From the sequence record SRR2962707_2492: a stretch of 41,608 nt of DNA. One strand, written 5' to 3'. Below are positions 7,067 through 28,637 of this stretch, in pieces. A program made the translations under genes and the position numbers. Position 1 is the stretch's first letter. Every line of letters starts with the position of its first letter. Under the pieces are notes generated by a model. It was not told the DNA's origin, made no database searches, and saw only the letters and a list, made by a program, of their open reading frames with translations.

Positions 7067-7091
7067 AGGGTGCGCAACGCTTGCGCACCCT
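7067..7091 (+). other. Stem-loop after the precursor gene
   Basis: AGGGTGCGCAA-cgc-TTGCGCACCCT, a perfect 11-bp stem with no U tract. Confidence 0.7.
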
Positions 7092-7147
7092 ACACCCACA
7101 CCCCTGATACGCAGTCACCGACACCGCCCAAAGCCAAGGGATACACC

Positions 7148-8002
7148 ATGTTCGACAATCCAAATCCCCTGCCCGCAGCCCCCGGCGTCGGTTACAAGGC
7201 ACAGCATTTCACCGCGATCATGACAGACCCGGATCCGGTTCAATGGCTCGAAATCCATGCCGAAAACTACATGGGCAACGGCGGTCGCCCGATTGCACAG
7301 CTCCGGCATCTGGCCGAACGCTTTCCAATCTCGGTCCACGGCGTCGGACTGTCTATCGGGGGCGAAGGGCCACTTGACTCCGACCATCTTGCCCGGCTGA
7401 AACACCTCTGCGATTGGCTCAATCCAGCGAGCTTTTCTGAACACCTGGCATGGTCGACCCACGACAGCCATTTTTACAATGACCTCCTGCCGCTGCCCTA
7501 TTCCGACGCCACCCTGTCGCACGTCTGCGATCATATCGACACGGTGCAAGAGGTTCTGGGCCGCCCCATGCTGCTGGAAAATCCGTCCAGCTACCTCGCC
7601 TTTGAAACCTCGACCATGACGGAAACCGACTTTCTGCACGCCGTCACCCGGCGCACCGGTTGCGGCATGTTGCTGGATGTGAACAACGTCTTTGTGTCCG
7701 CCACCAACCTTGGCTATGCGCCGCGCGCCTATATCGATGCCTATCCGCTGGACGCAGTGGGCGAGATCCACCTTGGCGGCCATGACGAAGATCACGATGA
7801 TCATGGCGCGCCCCTGCTGATCGACAGCCACGGACGCGAAGTTGTCGACCCGGTCTGGGACTTGCTGGATTACACGCTTGCCCGGTCTGGCCCGCGCCCG
7901 ACCCTGGTGGAATGGGACACCGATGTGCCCGACTGGCCGGTTCTCGCGGCCGAGACGCGCCGCGCCGACATGGCCCTGTCCCGCCTTGGCGTGACCGCAT
8001 GA
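7148..8002 (+). CDS. bufB: Multinuclear non-heme iron oxidase (DUF692/MNIO), bufferin maturase
   Basis: WLEIHAENYM, HGVGLSIG, SEHLAW, LENPSSY, LLDVNNVFVS, EIHLGGH, IDSH and EWD, the DUF692 iron-ligand motifs. Confidence 0.95.
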   Translation: MFDNPNPLPAAPGVGYKAQHFTAIMTDPDPVQWLEIHAENYMGNGGRPIAQLRHLAERFPISVHGVGLSIGGEGPLDSDHLARLKHLCDWLNPASFSEHLAWSTHDSHFYNDLLPLPYSDATLSHVCDHIDTVQEVLGRPMLLENPSSYLAFETSTMTETDFLHAVTRRTGCGMLLDVNNVFVSATNLGYAPRAYIDAYPLDAVGEIHLGGHDEDHDDHGAPLLIDSHGREVVDPVWDLLDYTLARSGPRPTLVEWDTDVPDWPVLAAETRRADMALSRLGVTA

Positions 8003-8736
8003 CCCATCAGACCGCCTTTCACGCCGCCCTTCTGGATGCCGCCGCCCCCATTCCTGCCGGGCTGACCGATGGTATGGGCCGACCCGCAGGGCAGCGCTAT
8101 GCCGTTTATCGCAACAACGTCGCCGTATCGCTGCGCGACGCGTTGGAAACCGGATTTCCGGCCATCGCCAAACTGATCGGGACCGAAAATTTCCACGCCG
8201 TCGCGGGGATGTACCTGCGAAGCGCGCCGCCCGACACGCCGATCATGCAGCAGTATGGCGCTGGCTTCGCCGAGTTTCTGGAAACCCTCGCGCCGTTGGC
8301 CCATCTTTCCTATCTGGCCGATGTGGCCCGGATCGATCACAGGATGCGCCAATCCTATCACGCCGCCGATTCCACCCCCGCCGATGCCGGTCTTTTCCAG
8401 ACCCTGCCCGAAGACAAACTGATGTCCGCGCGCCTGTCCCTTGCGCCCTCTGTCCGGTTGCTACGATCTGCTTTTCCCGCCTTTGACGTCTGGGCCTTCA
8501 CCCTGCGCCCCGGCGCGCCAAAGCCCCGTCCACTGGCCCAGGACACTCTGATCCTGCGCGACGGATTCGATCCAGAACCGCACCTGCTCGGCCCCGGTGC
8601 CCATGACTTTGTACAGGCCATCGGCGCGGGCCAGCCACTGGGCGCCGCAATACAGGCGGCGGGCGACGTTTTCGATCTTGGCGCGATCCTGAACCTGCTG
8701 TTGTCCAACCACGCCATCACAGAGATCCATATTTGA
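7999..8736 (+). CDS. bufC: DUF2063 partner protein (RRE-like) of the MNIO
   Basis: RYAVYRNNV...L...FP...LIG.ENF, YG.GFAEFL and YLADVARID. ATGA overlap with the bufB stop. Confidence 0.9.
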   Translation: MTHQTAFHAALLDAAAPIPAGLTDGMGRPAGQRYAVYRNNVAVSLRDALETGFPAIAKLIGTENFHAVAGMYLRSAPPDTPIMQQYGAGFAEFLETLAPLAHLSYLADVARIDHRMRQSYHAADSTPADAGLFQTLPEDKLMSARLSLAPSVRLLRSAFPAFDVWAFTLRPGAPKPRPLAQDTLILRDGFDPEPHLLGPGAHDFVQAIGAGQPLGAAIQAAGDVFDLGAILNLLLSNHAITEIHI

Positions 8737-8749
8737 AAGGCACAATGCC

Positions 8750-9322
8750 ATGGACCGCCTCATAACGCTTCACACTGACCTGTCGGACAGTATCGAACGC
8801 CATTTTTCCGCGCTGATCCCGCTGATCGCCCGTCTGGTCTTTGCCGCGACGCTGCTGGGCTATTTCTGGTCCTCGGCCCTTACCAAACTGGGCGATGGGG
8901 TTATGGGGGTGCTACAGCCCTCGGCTGGCGCCTATGCCCAGATATTCCCCCGCGCGCTAGAAGCGGTGGGGTATGATGCCTCGCAGCTCGGCCTGTTTCA
9001 CTGGGCCGTTGTGACTTTGGGCATGTGGGCGGAATTCATCCTGCCGCTGCTGATTGTGGTCGGCCTGTTCACCCGTCTGGCAAGCCTTGGCATGATCGGC
9101 TTTATCGTTGTGCAAAGCCTGACCGACCTATACGCCCACGGCGCCATCGCGCATGAGGGAACACTTGGCGCGTGGTTTGACAGGGCACCCGACAGCCTGA
9201 TCCTGGATCAACGCACCTTCTGGATATTCGTGTTGCTGGTGCTCGTTATCCGGGGGGCCGGTGCGCTGTCGCTCGACCGCCTCCTGTCGCGTCAAATCCT
9301 GGGCCACAGGCACCCCGCCTGA
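8750..9322 (+). CDS. bufD: DoxX family membrane protein
   Basis: RLVFAATLLGYFWSSALTK, AEFILPLLIVVGLFTRLA and GAGALSLD. Fourth gene of the cluster. Confidence 0.9.
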   Translation: MDRLITLHTDLSDSIERHFSALIPLIARLVFAATLLGYFWSSALTKLGDGVMGVLQPSAGAYAQIFPRALEAVGYDASQLGLFHWAVVTLGMWAEFILPLLIVVGLFTRLASLGMIGFIVVQSLTDLYAHGAIAHEGTLGAWFDRAPDSLILDQRTFWIFVLLVLVIRGAGALSLDRLLSRQILGHRHPA

Positions 9323-11554: not shown

Positions 11555-12421
11555 ATGACCCGCCCCGAGATTTCATTTGAGTTCTTCCCGCCCAAGAACA
11601 TCGAAGCCACCTTTCGCCTCTGGGACACTGTTCAGGTATTGGCCCCGCTGGCGCCACGGTTCGTGTCGGTCACCTATGGCGCGGGCGGCACCACGCGCGA
11701 TCTGACCCGGGATGTGGTGTCGACCTTGCAGAAAAATTCCGGCCTGCGCACCGCAGCGCATCTGACCTGCGTCGATGCAACTCGCGATGAAACACTGCAA
11801 ATCGCCCGCGATTTCGCCGCCGCCGGCGTGACCGACATCGTCGCCCTGCGCGGCGACCCGCCCAAGGGCGCAAACGGCTTTGTGCCCCACCCCGATGGCT
11901 TCAAAAGCTCTGTCGAACTGATCGAGGCACTGAAAGACGCCGGTGATTTTACCATTCGCGTCGGCGCCTACCCCGACAAACACCCCGAGGCACCCAGCGC
12001 CACGGCGGATGTCGAATATCTCAAACGCAAACTCGACGCTGGCGCTGACGAGGCGCTGACCCAGTTTTTCTTTGAGGCTGACACCTTCTTTCGGTTCCGC
12101 GATGCCTGCGCCAAGGCTGGGATCGACAAACCCATCGTGCCGGGCATCTTTCCGATCGAAAACTGGAAAGGCGCGCGTCGCTTTGCCGATTCCTGCGGCA
12201 CGCATATCCCCGAATGGGTCATCGACGCATTCGAAACCGCCACCCGGGACGGACGGCAGGATCTGCTGGCCACTGCGATGTGCACCGAACTCTGCTCGAA
12301 TCTGATCGACGGTGGGGTGGATAAGCTGCACTTTTACACGCTCAACCGCCCCGAACTAACGCGCGATGTCTGCTTTGCACTGGGCGTGACGCCCGACGTA
12401 ACCCTTGAAGACGTCGCCTGA
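11555..12421 (+). CDS. metF: 5,10-methylenetetrahydrofolate reductase
   Basis: ISFEFFPPK, FVSVTYGAGG, AHLTC, ALRGDPP, TQFFF and HFYTLN. Confidence 0.98.
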   Translation: MTRPEISFEFFPPKNIEATFRLWDTVQVLAPLAPRFVSVTYGAGGTTRDLTRDVVSTLQKNSGLRTAAHLTCVDATRDETLQIARDFAAAGVTDIVALRGDPPKGANGFVPHPDGFKSSVELIEALKDAGDFTIRVGAYPDKHPEAPSATADVEYLKRKLDAGADEALTQFFFEADTFFRFRDACAKAGIDKPIVPGIFPIENWKGARRFADSCGTHIPEWVIDAFETATRDGRQDLLATAMCTELCSNLIDGGVDKLHFYTLNRPELTRDVCFALGVTPDVTLEDVA

Positions 12422-12505
12422 CCGGGCCACCGGGGCTATGAATATTGTCCCGACCTATCCGCCTGCCCCTTGCCACTGTCGCGCGGCCACGGCACGTTCA
12501 GTTGT

Positions 12506-12967
12506 ATGATACGCCCTGCCCGCCCCGATGATCTGAACACCATTCGCGCCATCGCGGTCGCGGCTTATGCGCCCTATATTCCACTGATCGGTCGCAAACC
12601 CGCCCCGATGGAAGCGGACTTTGCCGCCCAGATCGCCGCTCACACCCTCTATGTCGCAGACCCGGACGACACCGCGCCGCTTGGCTTTGTGGTTTTCTAT
12701 CCGGCGGGGGATTCGATGTTTCTGGAAAATATCGCCGTTGACCGGGCCGTCGGCGGTCAGGGCATCGGCAGGGCGCTGATGACCTATTGCGAAACGCAGG
12801 CGCGCACGGCCGGGATGGTGGCGGTCACGCTTTATACCAACGCCCTGATGGCCGACAATCTGCGCATCTATCCGCATCTTGGCTATGTCCAGACCGACCG
12901 TCGGCACGAAGACGGCTTTGACCGGGTCTATTTCCGCAAGGACCTGCACCAAAGCGTCTCAGACTGA
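12506..12967 (+). CDS. GNAT family N-acetyltransferase
   Basis: MIRPARPDDL, LENIAV...GGQGIGRALM (acetyl-CoA motif A) and NLRIYPHLGY. Confidence 0.9.
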   Translation: MIRPARPDDLNTIRAIAVAAYAPYIPLIGRKPAPMEADFAAQIAAHTLYVADPDDTAPLGFVVFYPAGDSMFLENIAVDRAVGGQGIGRALMTYCETQARTAGMVAVTLYTNALMADNLRIYPHLGYVQTDRRHEDGFDRVYFRKDLHQSVSD

Positions 12968-13042
12968 ACCCGAAGCGGATGTGCGCTGTCCTTCCCTTTG
13001 GTCGAACGCAAACTCCGATGCTCTTTGTCCCAGTTTGAATCC

Positions 13043-13284
13043 GAAACGCCGAACACCGCCGCCCGCCTGGTCCCTGTAAAACCGGTGCGCCGCCGCGATG
13101 ACCTGCGCGCCCAGCGCGGGGATCGCCTTGGGGCAAATCTAGTTTGAAGCGCCCGAAGAAAGTGCTCGGCGCGTCCTGCGCCCTGCCGCGGGCCACCATT
13201 CTGAAAAACCCCGTGGTATTCTGCGGCAGGTGTGCCAGTGTTATGCTGAACATCAGCAATGTCGGTCCCGACAGCCTGCCTTGG
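13043..13284 (+). pseudogene. bhcB: Eroded 3' remnant of beta-hydroxyaspartate dehydratase
   Basis: 13144-13284 reads LKRPKKVLGASCALPRATILKNPVVFCGRCASVMLNISNVGPDSLPW. This parallels the BhcB/serine-dehydratase C-terminus (W.RMK.V.EPS.AVPLA.ILKN..VF.GKRVGVI.TGGNVDLD.LPW). A weaker match ETPNTAARLVPVK lies upstream in another frame. The position is the expected one, directly before bhcC. Confidence 0.75.
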
Positions 13285-13339
13285 TCAAGTGTCATCGCCG
13301 GGGTCGCCCCATCCGTTTTCTCAACGCGAGAAGAGAACT

Positions 13340-14503
13340 ATGAAAGACCACACAGATTTCACCGACTTAGAGGTTGGTTATGACATTCCCGCCCTGCCAG
13401 GCATGGATGAAGCCGACATTCAGACGCCCTGCCTGATCCTTGATCTTGATGCGCTGGAACGCAACATCACCAAGATGGGCGATTTCGCCAAATCCCACGG
13501 CATGCGCCACCGGGTCCATGGCAAGATGCACAAATCCGTCGATGTCGCCCTGCTTCAGGAACGTCTTGGCGGGTCCTGTGGCGTCTGCTGTCAAAAGGTG
13601 TCCGAGGCCGAAGTGTTCGCCCGTGGCGGCATCACGGATGTGCTGGTGACCAATCAGGTCACCCAACCGGCCAAGATCGACCGCCTTGCCCGCCTGCCAT
13701 TGCTTGGCGCGCGCACCATCTGCTGTGTCGATGACATGGATAACATCCCGAACCTGTCCGCCGCCGCGCAAAAACACGGCACCCAGATCGAATGTCTGGT
13801 GGAAATCGATTGCGGTGACGGGCGCTGCGGCGTGACAACCACGCCCCAGGTCGTGGAACTCGCCCGGGCCATCGACGCCGCCAAGGGTCTGAAATTCGCG
13901 GGCCTTCAGGCCTATCAGGGCGCGATGCAACACCTCGACAGCTATGAGGACCGCAAAGCCAAGGCCGATATCGCCGTTGCCATAGTCACCCACGCCATTG
14001 CCGCACTCAAGGCCGAAGGGATCGATTGCGACACCGTCAGTGGCGGCGGCACCGGCTCCTACTACTTCGAATCCGCCTCCGGGGTGTTCAACGAACTCCA
14101 GTGCGGCTCTTACGCCTTTATGGACGCCGACTATGGCCGCATTCATGGCAAGGACGGCAACCGCATCGATCAGGGCGAATGGGAAAACGCGCTCTTCGTC
14201 CTCACCAGTGTTATGAGCCACGCCAAAGCCGACAAGGCCATCGTCGATGCCGGGCTCAAGACCCATTCGGTCGATTCCGGCCTGCCGGTGATCTTTGGCC
14301 GCACGGATGTGAGTTACGTCAAATGCTCGGACGAACACGGCGTCGTGTCCGACCCTAATGGCGTGCTCCAGGTCAACGATACCCTCCGCCTCGTCCCGGG
14401 CCACTGCGACCCCACCTGCAATATCCACGACTGGTATGTCGGCGTGCGCGGCGGCAAGGTCGAAACCCTCTGGCCCATCTCGGCCCGCGGCAAGGCGTAC
14501 TGA
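13340..14503 (+). CDS. bhcC: Beta-hydroxyaspartate aldolase-like PLP enzyme (DSD1/D-threonine aldolase family)
   Basis: EVGYDIPALPGMDE, HGKMHKS (PLP Lys), CCQKVSEAE, ELQCGSYAFMDADY, SDEHG, PGHCDPTCN and ARGKAY. 387 aa, colinear with Paracoccus BhcC as recalled. Confidence 0.93.
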   Translation: MKDHTDFTDLEVGYDIPALPGMDEADIQTPCLILDLDALERNITKMGDFAKSHGMRHRVHGKMHKSVDVALLQERLGGSCGVCCQKVSEAEVFARGGITDVLVTNQVTQPAKIDRLARLPLLGARTICCVDDMDNIPNLSAAAQKHGTQIECLVEIDCGDGRCGVTTTPQVVELARAIDAAKGLKFAGLQAYQGAMQHLDSYEDRKAKADIAVAIVTHAIAALKAEGIDCDTVSGGGTGSYYFESASGVFNELQCGSYAFMDADYGRIHGKDGNRIDQGEWENALFVLTSVMSHAKADKAIVDAGLKTHSVDSGLPVIFGRTDVSYVKCSDEHGVVSDPNGVLQVNDTLRLVPGHCDPTCNIHDWYVGVRGGKVETLWPISARGKAY

Positions 14504-14544
14504 TACAGGTCTGCCCGCCCATCAGCCTGGGCCGAGCCAGAAAA

Positions 14545-14599
14545 CCATATACCAGCCATACGGCAACCATACGGTTTCCATACGCTTTCCACATGCCCC
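14545..14599. repeat. Degenerate 11-bp tandem repeat, 5 units
   Basis: CCATATACCAG CCATACGGCAA CCATACGGTTT CCATACGCTTT CCACATGCCCC. Units start at 14545, 14556, 14567, 14578 and 14589. Confidence 0.8.
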
Positions 14600-14822
14600 T
14601 TTCGACCCCTCAAAGACCGCAGAAAGACCCAAATACGCCGGTGATGCGGTCCGGGTGACAATTGGCAGACCACCCTGCGCACCGCTGCCTTTGCCGTATC
14701 CATTCAAACATCTTGCACGCAGAGTCCCAATGACTCGGCATAATCCGTGCCGTGCATTTATCCATTTGTGAACATCTGAATCACCTCTGGCTTCGTCTTT
14801 AGCCTGCCAAAGGCACGTCCTA

Positions 14823-14957
14823 CACTAGGGACGCAGCAGCACCGGAAAAATCATCCCGCTCGACGGCACCAAATTTGGTCTACTAGACCTTGCAGTCGCC
14901 GCCAAAGTGGTGGAGCTTGCACAGCAGAACGACATCGCTCTCGACGTCGATTTCTGA
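14823..14957 (+). pseudogene. bhcD: Eroded 3' remnant of iminosuccinate reductase (ornithine cyclodeaminase family)
   Basis: Reads H*GRSSTGKIIPLDGTKFGLLDLAVAAKVVELAQQNDIALDVDF*. This parallels the BhcD C-terminus HPGR.S...ITLFDGTGVGLQDLAVA...V.LA...G.A.EVDF. It has an in-frame TAG at 14826 and no start. The position is the expected one, after bhcC. Confidence 0.8.
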
Positions 14958-14972
14958 TGTAGAGGCAATGAC

Positions 14973-15965
14973 ATGCGCGTGGCTCTGAACGGTTTCGGCA
15001 GGATCGGACGCACAATCCTGCGCCAGCTTCTGGCATCCCACACTGATATCGAAATCGCCCTGATCAACGATATCGCCCCGCTGGACACCTGTGCCTACCT
15101 GTTTCGCTATGACTCGGTCTTCGGACCCTTTCCCGGAACGGTGCGCGCGGATACCGGGACGCTCGCGGTTGACGAACGGCTAATCCCGTTCAGCCACAAA
15201 AAAGATCTCGCCGAACTGGATCTTTCAGGCATCGATATCCTGATGGATTGCACCGGCATCATCCACACCCGCGCCCATGCTGCACGCGGGCTGACTGCGG
15301 GGGCGAAAAATGTCCTGATTTCCGGCCCCTGCGATGAGGCCGAAAAAACCATCGTCCTTGGCGCAAACGAGGGTCAGCTTGGCGATGCCCGCATCGTGTC
15401 CAACGCGTCCTGCACAACCAATGCGCTCGCGCCCCTGCTGCGCGTGCTACAGGACACCTGGGGTATCGCGCAGGGCCATATGACCACGATCCACTGCTAC
15501 ACTGGCAGTCAGCCCATGGTCGACGCGCCGCGCGGCGACCTTGCCCGCAGCCGTGCCGGGGCCGTGTCCATGGTGCCCACCACCACCAGCGCCACGCGCC
15601 TGATCGACCAGGTCCTGCCCGACATCGCGGGCCGCGTCACCGGCGCCGCCGTCCGCGTCCCGGTCATCAGCGTCTCTGCCATTGATCTGGTCGTGACGCT
15701 AAAAACCATTCCTGATCAATCTCTTGACATCCATCTGGAACAGATCTCACAGGCATCAAAGGTGCTGGGCATCACCCGGGATGCCACAGTCTCGACGGAC
15801 CTGCGTGCCCGGCCAGAATCCCTTGTCATTGCGCTACCGGAAACCATCCAGACCGGCAATCAGGTGCGGATCTTTGGCTGGTACGACAACGAATGGGGCT
15901 TTTCCGCGCGAATGATTGACATGGCACGCCTGATGGCGGCCCGACCGCCACGCCGGTCATCCTGA
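14973..15965 (+). CDS. gap: Type I glyceraldehyde-3-phosphate dehydrogenase family protein (divergent paralog)
   Basis: NGFGRIGR, YDSVFG, SNASCTTN (catalytic Cys), AVRVP and WYDNEWGFS. Confidence 0.9.
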   Translation: MRVALNGFGRIGRTILRQLLASHTDIEIALINDIAPLDTCAYLFRYDSVFGPFPGTVRADTGTLAVDERLIPFSHKKDLAELDLSGIDILMDCTGIIHTRAHAARGLTAGAKNVLISGPCDEAEKTIVLGANEGQLGDARIVSNASCTTNALAPLLRVLQDTWGIAQGHMTTIHCYTGSQPMVDAPRGDLARSRAGAVSMVPTTTSATRLIDQVLPDIAGRVTGAAVRVPVISVSAIDLVVTLKTIPDQSLDIHLEQISQASKVLGITRDATVSTDLRARPESLVIALPETIQTGNQVRIFGWYDNEWGFSARMIDMARLMAARPPRRSS

Positions 15966-24588: not shown

Positions 24589-25971
24589 TTAGCTCAGACC
24601 TTCAGCCTCAACCCAGTCCTGTGCGAGGTCTAGAGCCCGGCCCATCCTTTCGAGGATCTGGTCAATGTCGTCCTCTGTCACGATCAGCGGCGGGCAAAGG
24701 GCCACGGTTTCATAGACGTTGCGGCAGATCAGGCCTTCTTGCGCGGCGAATTTAACAACCTGTGCCGAAACCTTTCCCGCCGGGGAAAAGCTGCGCTTTG
24801 TCGCCTTGTCAGCCACCAGCTCCAAACCTGCGATAAGTCCCACGCCGCGTACCTCACCGACCAACGGATGATCGGCGAACTTTCGCAGCCCATCCTGGAA
24901 ACGCGATTCCAGGCGGGCGGCATTGCCGATCAGATCCCGCTCTTGAATGATGGCAAGGTTTTCCAAACCCACAGCGCAGGCAACCGGGTGACCGGACCCG
25001 GTAAAACCATGACCGAAAGTGCCCAGTTTTTCCGAATGGTCGGCGATGGCGTTGTAGACCTTGTCGTTCATGATGATTGCAGACAGCGGCATGTAGGACG
25101 ATGTCAATTGCTTGGACATCACCATGATGTCTGGGGTAAATCCGTATTTTTGGCAGCCAAAGGTCGTCCCCAGACGGCCGAACCCGTTAATGACCTCGTC
25201 TGCGATCAACACGATGTCGTATTTGCGGCACAGCGCCTCAATCCCGGGCCAATATCCTTCGGGCGGGGTCATGACGCCACCTGCACCCATCACCGGCTCG
25301 CCGATGAAACCGGCAATCGTCTCTGGACCTTCGGCCAGGATCACATCCTCGGCCTCGTTCAGCAGGCGCGCAGTAAACTCGGCTTCGCTCTCGCCATCCT
25401 GTCCCCAGCGCCAGTAGTGCGGGCAGGTCAGATGCGTGACAGGGATGGCGGGCAGATCGAAATCCTTGTGGTTCGCCGGCAAACCAGTCAACGAACCAGA
25501 GGCGATTGTGATCCCGTGATAGCCTCTGTCGCGCGCCAAAAACCGCTTCTTTTCGGGGCGCCCCAGGCCGTTATTCATAAACCACAGCATCTTGATGACG
25601 GTGTCGTTTGCCTCGGACCCCGAGTTGGTGAAGAACACCCGGTTCATGCCTTCGGGTGCCATTTCCGCCAACTTCTCGGCCAGGCGGATCGCAGGCTCAT
25701 GCGATTTGTGGGAAAAGCTGTGATAATAGGGCAGCAGGTCCATTTGCCGGACAGCGGCATCCCGCAGGCGCGGTTCGGAAAAGCCGACAGCCACGGACCA
25801 GAGCCCGGCAAGACCTTCGATATATTCTTTGCCGTGATCATCATAGACACGCACGCCATCCCCACGCGCCATGATCATCGGCCCCTGCTTTTCGTGTAGG
25901 CGCATGTTTGTATAGGGATGTACGCTGTGCGCGATGTCCGCTGCGGCGAGCGAGTTTGACAGGTCTTTCAT
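24589..25971 (-). CDS. Class III (omega-type) PLP aminotransferase
   Basis: GLAGLW, FTNSGSEAND, GYHG, EPVMGAGG, ADEVINGFGRLG, SKQLTSSYMP (PLP Lys) and HGFTGSGHP. Confidence 0.95.
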   Translation of the reverse strand: MKDLSNSLAAADIAHSVHPYTNMRLHEKQGPMIMARGDGVRVYDDHGKEYIEGLAGLWSVAVGFSEPRLRDAAVRQMDLLPYYHSFSHKSHEPAIRLAEKLAEMAPEGMNRVFFTNSGSEANDTVIKMLWFMNNGLGRPEKKRFLARDRGYHGITIASGSLTGLPANHKDFDLPAIPVTHLTCPHYWRWGQDGESEAEFTARLLNEAEDVILAEGPETIAGFIGEPVMGAGGVMTPPEGYWPGIEALCRKYDIVLIADEVINGFGRLGTTFGCQKYGFTPDIMVMSKQLTSSYMPLSAIIMNDKVYNAIADHSEKLGTFGHGFTGSGHPVACAVGLENLAIIQERDLIGNAARLESRFQDGLRKFADHPLVGEVRGVGLIAGLELVADKATKRSFSPAGKVSAQVVKFAAQEGLICRNVYETVALCPPLIVTEDDIDQILERMGRALDLAQDWVEAEGLS

Positions 25972-25986
25972 GTGTTTCTCCGAAAA

Positions 25987-27021
25987 TCAGGCGCGCGTGT
26001 CGCGGCCAAGAAATCCCCCAAGGAAGGAGGCAAGCGATGTGGTCAGATCCGGTGAAAGATAGCCACCTTCCTGGACCAGGACTGTAGGCAGGTCCGCCTC
26101 GGCGATCAGAAGACCGGCCTGCCGGAATCCCTCAAAAGTGACTTTCATGCCCTTTAGAGGATCGTTTTCATGTGCATCGAGTCCCAAACTGATCACAAGC
26201 GCACCCGGATCGAATTCCGCGATCCCCGCAAGGGCGTCGGAAATCGCCGCGCACCAATCATCGTCTGCCGTGGTGGGGGGCAGCGGCATGTTGATGTTGA
26301 ACCCTTGGCCCAGCCCACGTCCGGTTTCATGTGCGTGTCCCACGAAGAACGGATAATACAGATGCGGGTCAGTATGGATCGAGATAAATAGCACGTCGTC
26401 GCGGTCGTAAAATATCCACTGCGTACCATTCCCATGGTGCACGTCGATGTCCAGGATCGCCACACGTTCATGTTTTTCGCGCAGACGTTCTGCCGCGATG
26501 GCGCTGACGTTCATCAGGCAGTGCCCGGCGCAGGTTTCGGCATCCGAATGGTGGCCCGGCGGGCGGGTCAGTGCATAGGCCGCGCGATCACCGTCCAGAA
26601 CCGCATCCGCCGCCGCTATGGCACAGTCGGCGGCGCGTCGCGTCGCATCCCAGCTGTGCGGCCCAATTGGGGCCGAGGTATCGCCCATATGCCAACCCGC
26701 CCGCCCGATGATGCTGTCGGGATAGGTCGCCCTAGCCTTTTGTGCAAAGGCGTTCGGTACCACTTCGACCCCCGCGCCGGGCAGTTTCTGCCAATCTTCC
26801 CAAGCCGTTTCAAGAAAGGTCAGCAGTTCGGGTGTATGCACGGCCTCAAGACAGGCGCGCGGCGCCTCGGGCGGTTCTTGTGTGCTCAGCCCCAGCTGGT
26901 TCAGCCCAGCAATCAGAAGCGTTGCCCTCTCGGCCTGTTCAGCGTTGCGCATCAAAGCGCCATTGGTCAGGCGAAACTGCGGGTCATGCGCTTCGGTTTC
27001 TTTGGCGTAAAAACACTTCAT
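25987..27021 (-). CDS. Histone deacetylase family Zn amidohydrolase (acetylpolyamine amidohydrolase-like)
   Basis: RPPGHH, DIDVHHGNGTQ, SLGLDAHENDP and QEGGY. Confidence 0.94.
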   Translation of the reverse strand: MKCFYAKETEAHDPQFRLTNGALMRNAEQAERATLLIAGLNQLGLSTQEPPEAPRACLEAVHTPELLTFLETAWEDWQKLPGAGVEVVPNAFAQKARATYPDSIIGRAGWHMGDTSAPIGPHSWDATRRAADCAIAAADAVLDGDRAAYALTRPPGHHSDAETCAGHCLMNVSAIAAERLREKHERVAILDIDVHHGNGTQWIFYDRDDVLFISIHTDPHLYYPFFVGHAHETGRGLGQGFNINMPLPPTTADDDWCAAISDALAGIAEFDPGALVISLGLDAHENDPLKGMKVTFEGFRQAGLLIAEADLPTVLVQEGGYLSPDLTTSLASFLGGFLGRDTRA

Positions 27022-27734
27022 GGGGCGATATTGTCCTCCAGCAGGCGGAATTGTTGGCAGACAAGCGTCCGCGCAGTTCCGATGTGATAATCTATGGCAT
27101 CTACAGCAGCATCCGTGTCGCCCGCTGCGATCGCATCGATGATCGGCTGGTGGGTTTCTGCCATCTTGTGAGGGTCGTCGTACAGCCGACCGATCAAGAT
27201 CAGGCCCAGTTTGGTTTCATTCGCGATCTGATCAAAGACCGACAAGAAACGCGGATTGCCCGATCCCTTGCAGATCAGCCGATGAAACTGCATATCCGCC
27301 TCGACTTGGCGCGCCATATCCTCGCCAGTCTCGGCGACCCGAAAAAGCTCTTTGAGTTGTTCCCGCAGCAGCGGAAGCGTTTTTTCAGCCCCCTCAGCCA
27401 CAAGCCGAGCAATGGCTGCGCGTTCGATGACGATGCGAAATTCGTAAAGGTTGTCCAAAGCGGCAGACGACATCGTCTGCACAAAAAAACCGCGGTTGGT
27501 GTGATATTCAACCAAACCAGAGCTTTCGAGCAGGCGAGCGGCCTCTCTGACTGGCGCGCGGGAAAGCCCCATGTCGCGGGCGATGGCCGATTCTGACAGC
27601 CGCTCGCCAGGACGAATCCGTCCTGCAATGATCGCCTCGGCCAGCAGGTTTGCCACACGATCCACCAACCCATCACGGCTCACCCGCTGGAATCGCGTCT
27701 CGGACGGGACTTCTGGCTGCAAAGGGTCAAACAC
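27018..27734 (-). CDS. GntR family (FCD) transcriptional regulator; start uncertain
   Basis: PGERLSESAIARDMGLSRAPVREA wHTH and FCD motifs DMQFHRLI...SGN and H..II.AI..GD. The in-frame start is GTG at 27734. The RBS-preceded ATG at 27750 is out of frame. Confidence 0.88.
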   Translation of the reverse strand: MFDPLQPEVPSETRFQRVSRDGLVDRVANLLAEAIIAGRIRPGERLSESAIARDMGLSRAPVREAARLLESSGLVEYHTNRGFFVQTMSSAALDNLYEFRIVIERAAIARLVAEGAEKTLPLLREQLKELFRVAETGEDMARQVEADMQFHRLICKGSGNPRFLSVFDQIANETKLGLILIGRLYDDPHKMAETHQPIIDAIAAGDTDAAVDAIDYHIGTARTLVCQQFRLLEDNIAP

Positions 27735-27792
27735 GGAATAAGATGTCCATACGGCAGGCTCCTTGAAAACAGCAGTATCCGCAAAAATGTCG

Positions 27793-27804
27793 ATTGTCGA
27801 CAAT
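27793..27804. promoter_or_regulatory. Candidate GntR operator
   Basis: Perfect palindrome ATTGTCGACAAT, preceded by the partial copy ATGTCG, in the divergent spacer. Confidence 0.7.
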
Positions 27805-27869
27805 TTCCTTGACTCGTAGTCGGGAACCGCAATGCTGGGGCCAATCGCAACCGGACCAAGGATCACCAC

Positions 27870-28637
27870 ATGCCGGATGGCACGACCGAGCTGCCCGTAT
27901 CCGCCCTGCGCCGCGACCTTGCTGCGGCCTATCGCCTGATCGCGCTCGAAGGGATGGACGACAGTATCTACACCCACATCTCGGCACGTCTGCCCGATGG
28001 CCCAAAAGGTGAAAAACGTTTCCTGCTGAACCCTTACGGACTTAGGTTCGATGAGGTGACGGCAAGCAACCTTGTCACCATTGACGAAACCGGTGCCGTG
28101 GTCGATGACCCCTATGGCGCAGGTGTAAACGATGCCGGATTTACCATCCACTCAGCGGTTCACATGGCCCGCCATGATGCCACCTGTGTTCTACACACGC
28201 ATACCGTGGCCGGCGTTGCGACATCTTCTGTTAAGGAAGGTCTCCTGCCGCTCAACCAATGGTCGGCGCAATTCTACAACCGCATCGCCTATCATGATTA
28301 CGAAGGTATCGCGCTGAACCTGGCTGAACGCGAACGCATTGTGGACGACCTTGGCGCCAAGAATGTCATGTTTTTACGCAACCACGGTGTTCTTGTCCTT
28401 GGCCGGTCGGTCGGAGAAGCAGTTGCGACTGTGATGAACCTTGAACGGTCCTGTAAGGCGCAGATTGCGGCGCTTGGCATGGGGCTGACGCCGGTTGTGC
28501 TGTCCGACGATGTTGCCGAACACACCGCCCGCCAGTACGAACAGGCCTATGACGGCATTCACCAAAACGGGCGTGACCCGGAATGGGCCGCCATGTTGCG
28601 CCGTCTAGACCGCGCAGCGCCGGACTATGCAGACTGA
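27870..28637 (+). CDS. Class II aldolase/adducin family protein
   Basis: LAAAYRL, HISAR, GFTIHSAVH, LHTHT and LRNHG metal-binding motifs. Confidence 0.92.
   Translation: MPDGTTELPVSALRRDLAAAYRLIALEGMDDSIYTHISARLPDGPKGEKRFLLNPYGLRFDEVTASNLVTIDETGAVVDDPYGAGVNDAGFTIHSAVHMARHDATCVLHTHTVAGVATSSVKEGLLPLNQWSAQFYNRIAYHDYEGIALNLAERERIVDDLGAKNVMFLRNHGVLVLGRSVGEAVATVMNLERSCKAQIAALGMGLTPVVLSDDVAEHTARQYEQAYDGIHQNGRDPEWAAMLRRLDRAAPDYAD

Follow-up and report, generated by a model that had tools for sequence, protein, structure and literature searches.

BhcC and the related D-threonine aldolases (DTAs) are used and engineered to make β-hydroxy-α-amino acids, and efforts are under way to move the β-hydroxyaspartate (BHA) cycle into plants and production strains. 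What determines the substrate range of these enzymes is, to our knowledge, poorly mapped. Here, we analyze a bhcC gene on a 41,608-nt stretch of sequence record SRR2962707_2492 (the window, meaning this stretch at its full length; bhcC codons and residues are counted from the ATG at position 13340). The gene stands among the decayed remains of a bhc cluster, and its product departs from its relatives at four positions, 160, 270, 308 and 309. We give about half of our confidence to the reading that it is a working stand-alone aldolase, dependent on pyridoxal phosphate (PLP), with a shifted substrate pocket or preference.

The closest described system is BhcC of Paracoccus denitrificans (6QKB); BhcC reversibly joins glycine and glyoxylate to (2R,3S)-β-hydroxyaspartate. 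Both proteins have 387 residues, are 76% identical over 382 aligned columns and have the same catalytic residues, and the window gene descends from a bhcABCD cluster. They differ in that the window protein features Asp160, Gly270, Thr308 and His309 for Ala, Asp, Ala and Gln, and in that its gene has no adjoining bhcA, bhcB, bhcD or bhcR; the cycle as encoded at this locus is ruled out as its present physiological role. A second group are the DTAs of A. xylosoxidans (AxDTA, 4V15), F. marinum (7DIB) and C. reinhardtii (7YQA), which are likewise encoded by stand-alone genes, are 44–47% identical to the window protein and share with it the PLP-binding lysine, the arginine at position 162 (157 in AxDTA), the histidine at position 198 (193 in AxDTA) and the His/Asp metal site. 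According to the AxDTA report, DTA substrates are D-β-hydroxy-α-amino acids with neutral side chains (PMC4401734). Unlike the window protein, these DTAs have Gln or Gly at position 160, never Asp, and miss the 267–279 loop. Finally, 22 stand-alone BhcC-like aldolases of Rhodobacteraceae (e.g., in genomes G391, G033, G004 and G094) resemble the window BhcC in having no bhc neighbors and, in 18 of the 22, a residue other than Gln at position 309. These are older, separate lineages, several of them beside a bicupin gene, whereas the window orphan is recent and arose in situ by deletion.

Identity and catalytic residues of the window BhcC

The open reading frame lies on the plus strand at 13259–14503 and, when started at the ATG at 13340, encodes 387 amino acids that align with BhcC from end to end. 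The product scores 738.8 bits against the NCBIfam BhcC equivalog NF045642 (3-hydroxy-D-aspartate aldolase; cut-off 690), with residues 1–387 of 387 covered, and contains the Pfam domains Ala_racemase_N (PF01168) and D-ser_dehydrat (PF14031). Among solved structures, its closest match is 6qkb (E 4e-202), followed by three DTAs (E 2.5e-98 to 8e-91). When 88 bhcC coding sequences are placed in a maximum-likelihood tree, the window gene joins those of genomes G090 and G402 (bootstrap 99), and this group lies within the clade of the genus (bootstrap 96). Both the match to 6qkb and this nesting in the BhcC clade (bootstrap 96–99) show that the sequence is not nearer to DTAs than to BhcC; by phylogeny, the gene product classes as a BhcC inside a genus-level BhcC clade. 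An AlphaFold2 (AF2) model of the protein, built from a 50-sequence alignment (A1), has a mean predicted local distance difference test (pLDDT) score of 93.3 and superposes on 6qkb with a template modeling (TM) score of 0.97 (root-mean-square deviation, 1.2 Å) at 76% identity (Foldseek). The predicted fold is that of a fold-type III PLP enzyme, with an alanine-racemase-like barrel and a β domain as in 6QKB.

But does the protein still have what is needed for catalysis? For AxDTA, its published description names PLP-Lys59, Gln81, Arg157, Tyr187, His193, Thr233, Gln249, Ser252, Tyr260 and Asp321; Arg157 contacts both O3' of PLP and the carboxylate of the substrate, His193 acts as the base, and the metal ligands are one histidine and one aspartate (PMC4401734). 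Alignment to AxDTA identifies counterparts for the residues so named, and all are present in the window protein: K62, Q85, R162, Y192, H198, T238, Q254, S257, Y265, D331, H355 and D357. Most positions of this catalytic set are invariant columns in alignment A1. In AxDTA, we take the metal ligands to be His347 and Asp349; the conserved GHCDP motif does align. Since every aligned catalytic residue is present, the catalytic machinery of the window BhcC is complete.

Changes at positions conserved among relatives

A first-pass annotation of this DNA, made from the sequence alone, had drawn attention to an aspartate at position 160. Counted from the ATG, codon 160 is indeed GAC, and the window protein reads VEIDCGDGRCGV around this residue, where 6qkb reads VEIDCGAGRCGV. 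Also as described there, A195 (AYQGA, within AYQGAMQH) and S313 (SVDS) are retained, and GLKTHS (T308, H309) stands in place of GLKAQS; at matching positions, the window protein has GLKTHSVDS and 6qkb has GLKAQSVDS. We compared these positions in three sets of relatives, which overlap: 80 related loci from species-representative genomes, the 120 best homologs in a protein search over 5.8 billion clusters, and 7 genomes of the closest genus (congeners). Position 160 is Ala and position 309 is Gln without exception (80/80 loci, 120/120 homologs and 7/7 congeners each). Position 308 is Ala in 80/80 loci, 118/120 homologs and 7/7 congeners, and position 270 is Asp in 120/120 homologs and 7/7 congeners. 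Alignment with the BhcC family, which the annotation had proposed as a check, marks Asp160 as unique to the window lineage and derived on it.

The window protein stands out in the number of such changes as well. In the alignment of 121 sequences (the window protein and the 120 homologs), it has 11 unique residues, the top count (median 1). Five of these, T104, D160, S234, G270 and H309, fall on columns where the remaining 120 do not vary; the median for such hits is 0, and the window protein is exceeded by a single short metagenomic sequence. T104 and S234 are shared with 6qkb, and the residues departing from everything are D160, G270 and H309, plus the rare T308. The window protein lacks the residues that are invariant in pathway-linked BhcC, namely Ala160, Asp270 and Gln309, as well as the nearly invariant Ala308. 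A scan of a metagenome contig collection for E-I-D-x-G-[D/E]-G-R-C-G returned 29 loci and no BhcC among them: 12 encode a family member of 28–34% identity and 17 encode none.

Outside BhcC, the same positions are variable. In a set of 101 representatives of the superfamily at large, Q occupies position 160 in 41, G in 13, A in 12, M in 8 and another residue in the rest, with Asp in 2 distant members and Glu in 1; solved homologs have A (6qkb), Q (4v15, 7yqa), G (7dib) or N (3anu). In the same representatives, position 309 may be L, F, V or H, among others, and Gln occurs there in only 2/101. Taken together with the invariance of both positions in BhcC, this variability indicates that the fold permits many residues there and the BhcC clade does not. 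The annotation had also treated A160, A195 and S313 as a signature that distinguishes BhcC from DTAs, which holds in part: A160 and A195 are minority states of the superfamily (A195 occurs in 23 representatives), but S313 is its majority state (56 of 101) and is found in the DTA 7dib. Judging by these alignments, Q309 is the better and more BhcC-specific marker.

In the AF2 model, residue 160 is located in the Gly-flanked loop G159-D160-G161-R162, which follows strand 150–156, two positions ahead of Arg162; this arginine aligns with Arg157 of AxDTA. Window residues 305–308 align with AxDTA 295–298, which the AxDTA report describes as one of two active-site loops supplied by the second protomer (PMC4401734). 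Residue 270 belongs to a segment (~267–279) that comes after Tyr265, a phosphate-binding residue, and that faces a gap when a DTA (4v15) is aligned. We infer from these neighborhoods that the four changed residues line the substrate pocket, and that the specificity of the window BhcC has changed. Asp160 might conceivably repel hydroxyaspartate and leave the enzyme with a neutral or basic substrate, as the annotation had imagined, and His309 could offset the charge of Asp160.

Is Asp160, then, something that orphan bhcC genes acquire in general, as had been suggested? When 401 sampled genomes of the family were screened, a BhcC-like match (E ≤ 1e-150) was found in 207 genomes, 180 of them above the cut-off, and BhcB (E ≤ 1e-120) in 185. 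A BhcC-like match without BhcB occurs in 24 genomes, two of which are contig-end artifacts with bhcD adjacent. The remaining 22 genes have no bhc neighbor within 1.5 kb and are 47–75% identical to the window protein. Their residue at position 160 is A in 15, Q in 2, G in 2, and N, M and C in one each; with D in none of the 22, the suggested co-occurrence is not borne out. At position 309, they have Q in 4, M in 8, L in 4, S in 2, and A, F, H and T in one each. The 22 lineages are mutually related, making these counts non-independent events. As Gln is present in all operon-type relatives but in only 4 of the 22 stand-alone genes, Gln309 goes with the pathway context, and its loss in the window BhcC fits a departure from the cycle role.

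Three stand-alone BhcC-like genes (L151 in G033, L162 in G199 and L167 in G283) lie directly downstream of a two-domain cupin gene, and in G283 the BhcC-like gene is followed by a GAPDH-like gene, as is the bhc cluster in the window's genus. The cupin neighborhood is perhaps a second type of conserved setting for BhcC-like aldolases.

Loss of the cluster and selection on bhcC

In all 80 related loci, bhcC adjoins bhcB and/or bhcD, and in 71 of them the order is A-B-C-D; in the other 9, contig ends intervene or BhcA falls under the 55% threshold. The window locus retains decayed scraps of such a cluster. A tblastn search of the 41.6-kb window (E ≤ 1e-3) gave no match to BhcA, BhcD or BhcR and only a 46-aa tail of BhcB, which lies directly upstream of bhcC; the bhcD scraps downstream were detected by looser searches. 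Among the 401 sampled genomes, G090 is the best match to the flanks, with 84% nucleotide identity over metR-metF-GNAT, up to window position ~12950. At the syntenic site, G090 carries on one contig GNAT, bhcR (minus strand), bhcA, bhcB, bhcC, bhcD and then the GAPDH-like gene. One stretch of the window that aligns with it takes in the last ~145 nt of bhcB, bhcC itself and the bhcC-bhcD spacer; another starts with the last ~110 nt of bhcD and runs on from there. BhcC of G090 is identical to database protein P0005, named Puniceibacterium sediminis by NCBI, and the best hits of the window BhcC (89%) are likewise named Puniceibacterium. Because the edges of the cluster align in synteny with G090, the orphan arose in place, by the loss of ~3.0 kb upstream and the piecemeal erosion of bhcD downstream. 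In this, the annotation was right to call bhcC the survivor of a lost operon.

The upstream deletion junction, after the GNAT stop codon, contains ~100 nt (window 12953–13049) with many 72–85% copies across G402 and no second copy in the window; this dispersed repeat may have been involved in the deletion.

The same ancestral site has also decayed in genome G403 (L118+L114, G403:C59:259641-265488), where bhcA is intact, bhcB is gone, and fragments of bhcR, bhcC and bhcD remain: bhcC is down to its last ~89 codons (aa 298–386), and bhcD is present as two fragments. G403 features a second, more distant bhc cluster on another contig, with bhcA, bhcB and a 74% identical bhcC. The cluster is therefore decaying independently in the genus, and bhcC is not spared as a rule.

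In the window, no stop codon or indel was found in bhcC. Its pairwise NG86 omega against congeners is 0.08–0.15, with 0.05–0.21 among the congeners themselves. Lineage rates were determined as three-sequence relative-rate counts on real sequences, which give 21–25 private amino-acid changes for the window, 23–27 for G090 and 12 for G402. The terminal branch of the window gene in the tree is 0.113, at a median of 0.1145 (rank 45 of 88). Both results led us to reject an overall rate acceleration on the window lineage.

The scraps of the partner genes have fared very differently. Aligned with six congeners, the bhcB scrap shows 29–32 window-private substitutions versus 8–12 per relative lineage, and by former codon position these are distributed 8/12/12 in the window and 1/2/7 and 3/0/7 in the relatives. 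In bhcC, the private changes are distributed 17/6/55, with 70% at third positions; at positions 1 and 2 combined, bhcC has 23 private changes in 774 sites versus 20 in 99 for the bhcB scrap (Fisher p = 2e-9). The 118 nt of the bhcD tail contain 21 window-private substitutions, compared with 4 in G090 and 9 in G402. Expressed per site, the window-private rate is 0.216 for the bhcB scrap (32/148), 0.178 for the bhcD scrap (21/118) and 0.149–0.156 for four-fold sites of bhcC. Since the scraps do not fall below the four-fold rate of bhcC, they have drifted neutrally over roughly the full length of the terminal branch; consequently, the operon was lost early on the window lineage, and nearly all private changes of bhcC, D160 included, date from the orphan period.

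How would a useless bhcC look after this time? In neutral-decay simulations (5000 each) at 0.142 or 0.216 changes per site, the frame stayed open in 0.9% or 0.1% of the runs, and 114 or 164 residues changed, compared with the 21–25 observed. An omega of ~0.1, the intact frame and the third-position bias, next to neutral scraps, show that bhcC was maintained by selection: it has been under long purifying selection as a stand-alone gene. The omega values, the codon-position bias and the simulations make a working enzyme with altered constraints the best reading, in line with the re-purposed aldolase that the annotation had envisaged. The locus represents a natural experiment with an internal clock, in which the remains of the partners date the loss of the pathway and the aldolase stayed under selection. 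At sites that are otherwise frozen, the enzyme changed in four residues only, all placed within or beside loops of the active site. This is a single gene whose function is read from its sequence, yet the evolutionary argument that it is alive is unusually clean.

Alternative explanations and features of the locus

The course of events at the locus is as follows. The ancestor had bhcR and bhcABCD between the GNAT gene and the GAPDH-like gene, and bhcC is, in our reading, the last working piece of this set. Early on its own branch, the lineage lost bhcR, bhcA and most of bhcB by deletion, and bhcD eroded. Purifying selection kept bhcC as a stand-alone, catalytically complete PLP- and metal-dependent retro-aldol/aldol enzyme of the alanine-racemase fold. 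During the orphan period, four replacements were fixed: Ala160Asp, beside Arg162, which binds the carboxylate; Ala308Thr with Gln309His, in the loop that the partner subunit contributes to the active site; and Asp270Gly, in the BhcC-specific loop. Most likely, the constraint of binding β-hydroxyaspartate for the cycle was swapped for another one. The dimeric PLP/metal aldolase would follow the route described for AxDTA, with an external aldimine, the β-hydroxyl on the metal, His198 as the base and Arg162 on the α-carboxylate. It would still cleave or form D-β-hydroxy-α-amino acids, with a shifted substrate or aldehyde preference, and its pocket would be rebuilt where it contacts the distal group of the substrate. 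The added carboxylate at position 160, near Arg162, would disfavor a second carboxylate on the substrate, unless His309 pairs with Asp160. If such a shift in specificity is real, the four residues are ready-made engineering targets, and the locus is a clean example of enzyme salvage during pathway decay. A more far-reaching version, to which we hold only tentatively, is that the aldolase left behind took on a new substrate: Asp160, His309/Thr308 and Gly270 would rebuild the distal pocket in favor of a D-β-hydroxy amino acid or aldehyde acceptor without a second carboxylate, possibly a cationic one. This would amount to a dated, natural neofunctionalization by a few identifiable residues, which could be transplanted into BhcC or biocatalytic DTAs.

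Several points weigh against a shifted preference. Thr308 and His309 are found in 11 and 9 of the 101 superfamily representatives, respectively, and an acidic residue at position 160 in three distant ones; as they occur naturally, the changes are tolerated by the fold and do not require a new function. With 0 of 22 stand-alone genes carrying it, D160 is rejected as a general mark of orphan bhcC, and the stand-alone BhcC of G391, G033 and G314, which pass the cut-off, all keep Ala160. The relative-rate tests reveal no acceleration, and nothing positively points to adaptive change. The placement in the pocket derives from sequence neighborhood and from one report on a 44% identical enzyme (PMC4401734). 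The exact window protein has no match in a collection of 15 billion proteins, making it a single sequence without an independent sighting. In addition, a second bhc cluster elsewhere in the genome, as in G403, could be using the window enzyme.

Much of this would also suit a working β-hydroxyaspartate aldolase whose chemistry is essentially unchanged, an alternative that we take seriously but do not expect to hold. Here, the four changes would be near-neutral or compensating, for instance with Asp160 and His309 paired between the two subunits in a way that leaves the distal carboxylate acceptable, and the enzyme would serve glycine/glyoxylate interconversion alone or a set of bhc genes located in another part of the genome. 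The score above the curated BhcC equivalog cut-off, the full catalytic set and a purifying selection as strong as in operon copies all agree with it, as do the second, divergent bhc cluster next to the decayed ancestral one within the same genus (G403) and the three BhcB-less genomes that retain a cut-off-passing BhcC with Ala160. However, Ala160 and Gln309 are invariant in all pathway-linked relatives examined, down to 76% identity, which argues that the cycle role is intolerant of change there; with three or four hits of this kind on a single branch, the window protein has the second highest count of 121 sequences; and the genes bhcA, bhcB and bhcD are absent within 41.6 kb. If the kinetics turned out to be ordinary, Ala160 and Gln309 would be less essential than their invariance suggests.

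Could bhcC instead be dying, a useless gene whose active-site hits are the first damage, with a stop codon yet to come? The operon partners are gone, the hits fall on invariant sites, and G403 lost bhcC in the decay of the same ancestral cluster. The expression signals can be read in the same direction: the Shine-Dalgarno sequence departs from the congener consensus and appears to be weakened, the bhc cluster's own promoter region is gone from the window, and a promoter scan found no sigma-70-like promoter at 12300–15100. We nevertheless consider a dying gene improbable: the scraps have been neutral for approximately the whole branch, yet over the same time bhcC kept an omega of ~0.1, third positions took 70% of its private changes, and neither an indel nor a stop arose; in addition, simulations at the scrap rate leave at most 1% of frames open and predict 114–164 amino-acid changes where 21–25 are seen. 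The least probable explanation by far, to which we attach hardly any weight, is a sequencing or assembly error at codon 160, a single C-to-A change from GCC. One base change does turn GCC into GAC, and the protein has no exact match in the collection searched. But the same reading frame carries unique replacements at three other conserved sites, including two neighboring codons, and a normal amount of lineage-specific synonymous change, which indicates a real diverged lineage and not one bad base.

As for how a working bhcC would be transcribed, no terminator-like site was detected between the GNAT gene and bhcC (12967–13340), the sole one found being inside the GNAT gene. With the promoter region gone, no sigma-70-like site and no intervening terminator, bhcC is probably transcribed by read-through from the co-oriented GNAT gene. 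The RNA folds of two junction regions are unremarkable (z −0.25 and −1.71). Table 1 lists the features of the locus.

Table 1. Coordinates of the features at the bhcC locus of the window
Feature	Position	Strand	Basis
GNAT acetyltransferase gene; upstream boundary of the old bhc locus, same strand as bhcC	12470..12967	+	Pfam; G090 synteny ends at ~12950
bhcB, decayed 3' remnant (148 nt; 1-nt deletion, stop codon lost, many substitutions)	13144..13291	+	tblastn to BhcB aa 280-325, 54% identity, E 3e-8
Ribosome-binding region of bhcC; GCGAGAAGAGAA in the window, GGGAGATGAGA in six congeners	13326..13337	+	alignment
bhcC, intact, 387 codons + stop; sole surviving gene of the bhc cluster	13340..14503	+	NCBIfam, Pfam, 6qkb match, AF2 model
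Codon 160, GAC = Asp	13817..13819	+	direct reading; Ala in all relatives examined
Codon 270, GGC = Gly, for Asp invariant in relatives	14147..14149	+	alignments; loop gapped in 4v15
Codons 308-309, ACC CAT = Thr-His, for Ala-Gln of the GLKAQS loop	14261..14266	+	alignments
bhcD, probable internal fragment (~100 nt)	14659..14757	+	blastn 70-78% to G090 and G402 bhcD, E 8e-7
bhcD, 3' remnant (last ~38 codons, in-frame stop)	14823..14936	+	tblastn to BhcD aa 278-315, 44.7% identity, E 2e-5
GAPDH-like gene; downstream boundary of the old bhc locus	14973..15965	+	Pfam Gp_dh_N/C; 83-84% identity to the post-bhcD gene of G090

Downstream of bhcC, window 14545–14610 is an intergenic element made of repeated CCATACGG-like units, with dozens of 81–95% copies in G090 and G402. 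The element also sits in the bhcC-bhcD spacer of G090, and its RNA fold is unremarkable (z −1.7).

Two further regions of the window deserve mention. At 7070–9322, a gene of the MbnB/TglH/ChrH family (E 2e-105) comes before genes for DUF2063 and DoxX proteins; the pairing of DUF692 with DUF2063 is the usual one linked to stress peptides or to peptides resembling ribosomally synthesized and post-translationally modified peptides (RiPPs). On the minus strand at 24589–28151 lie genes for a class-III aminotransferase, a histone-deacetylase-family protein (acetylpolyamine amidohydrolase-like) and a GntR/FCD regulator, followed by a peptide-type ABC transporter and two D-2-hydroxyacid dehydrogenases; together, these genes look like a catabolic island unrelated to bhc.

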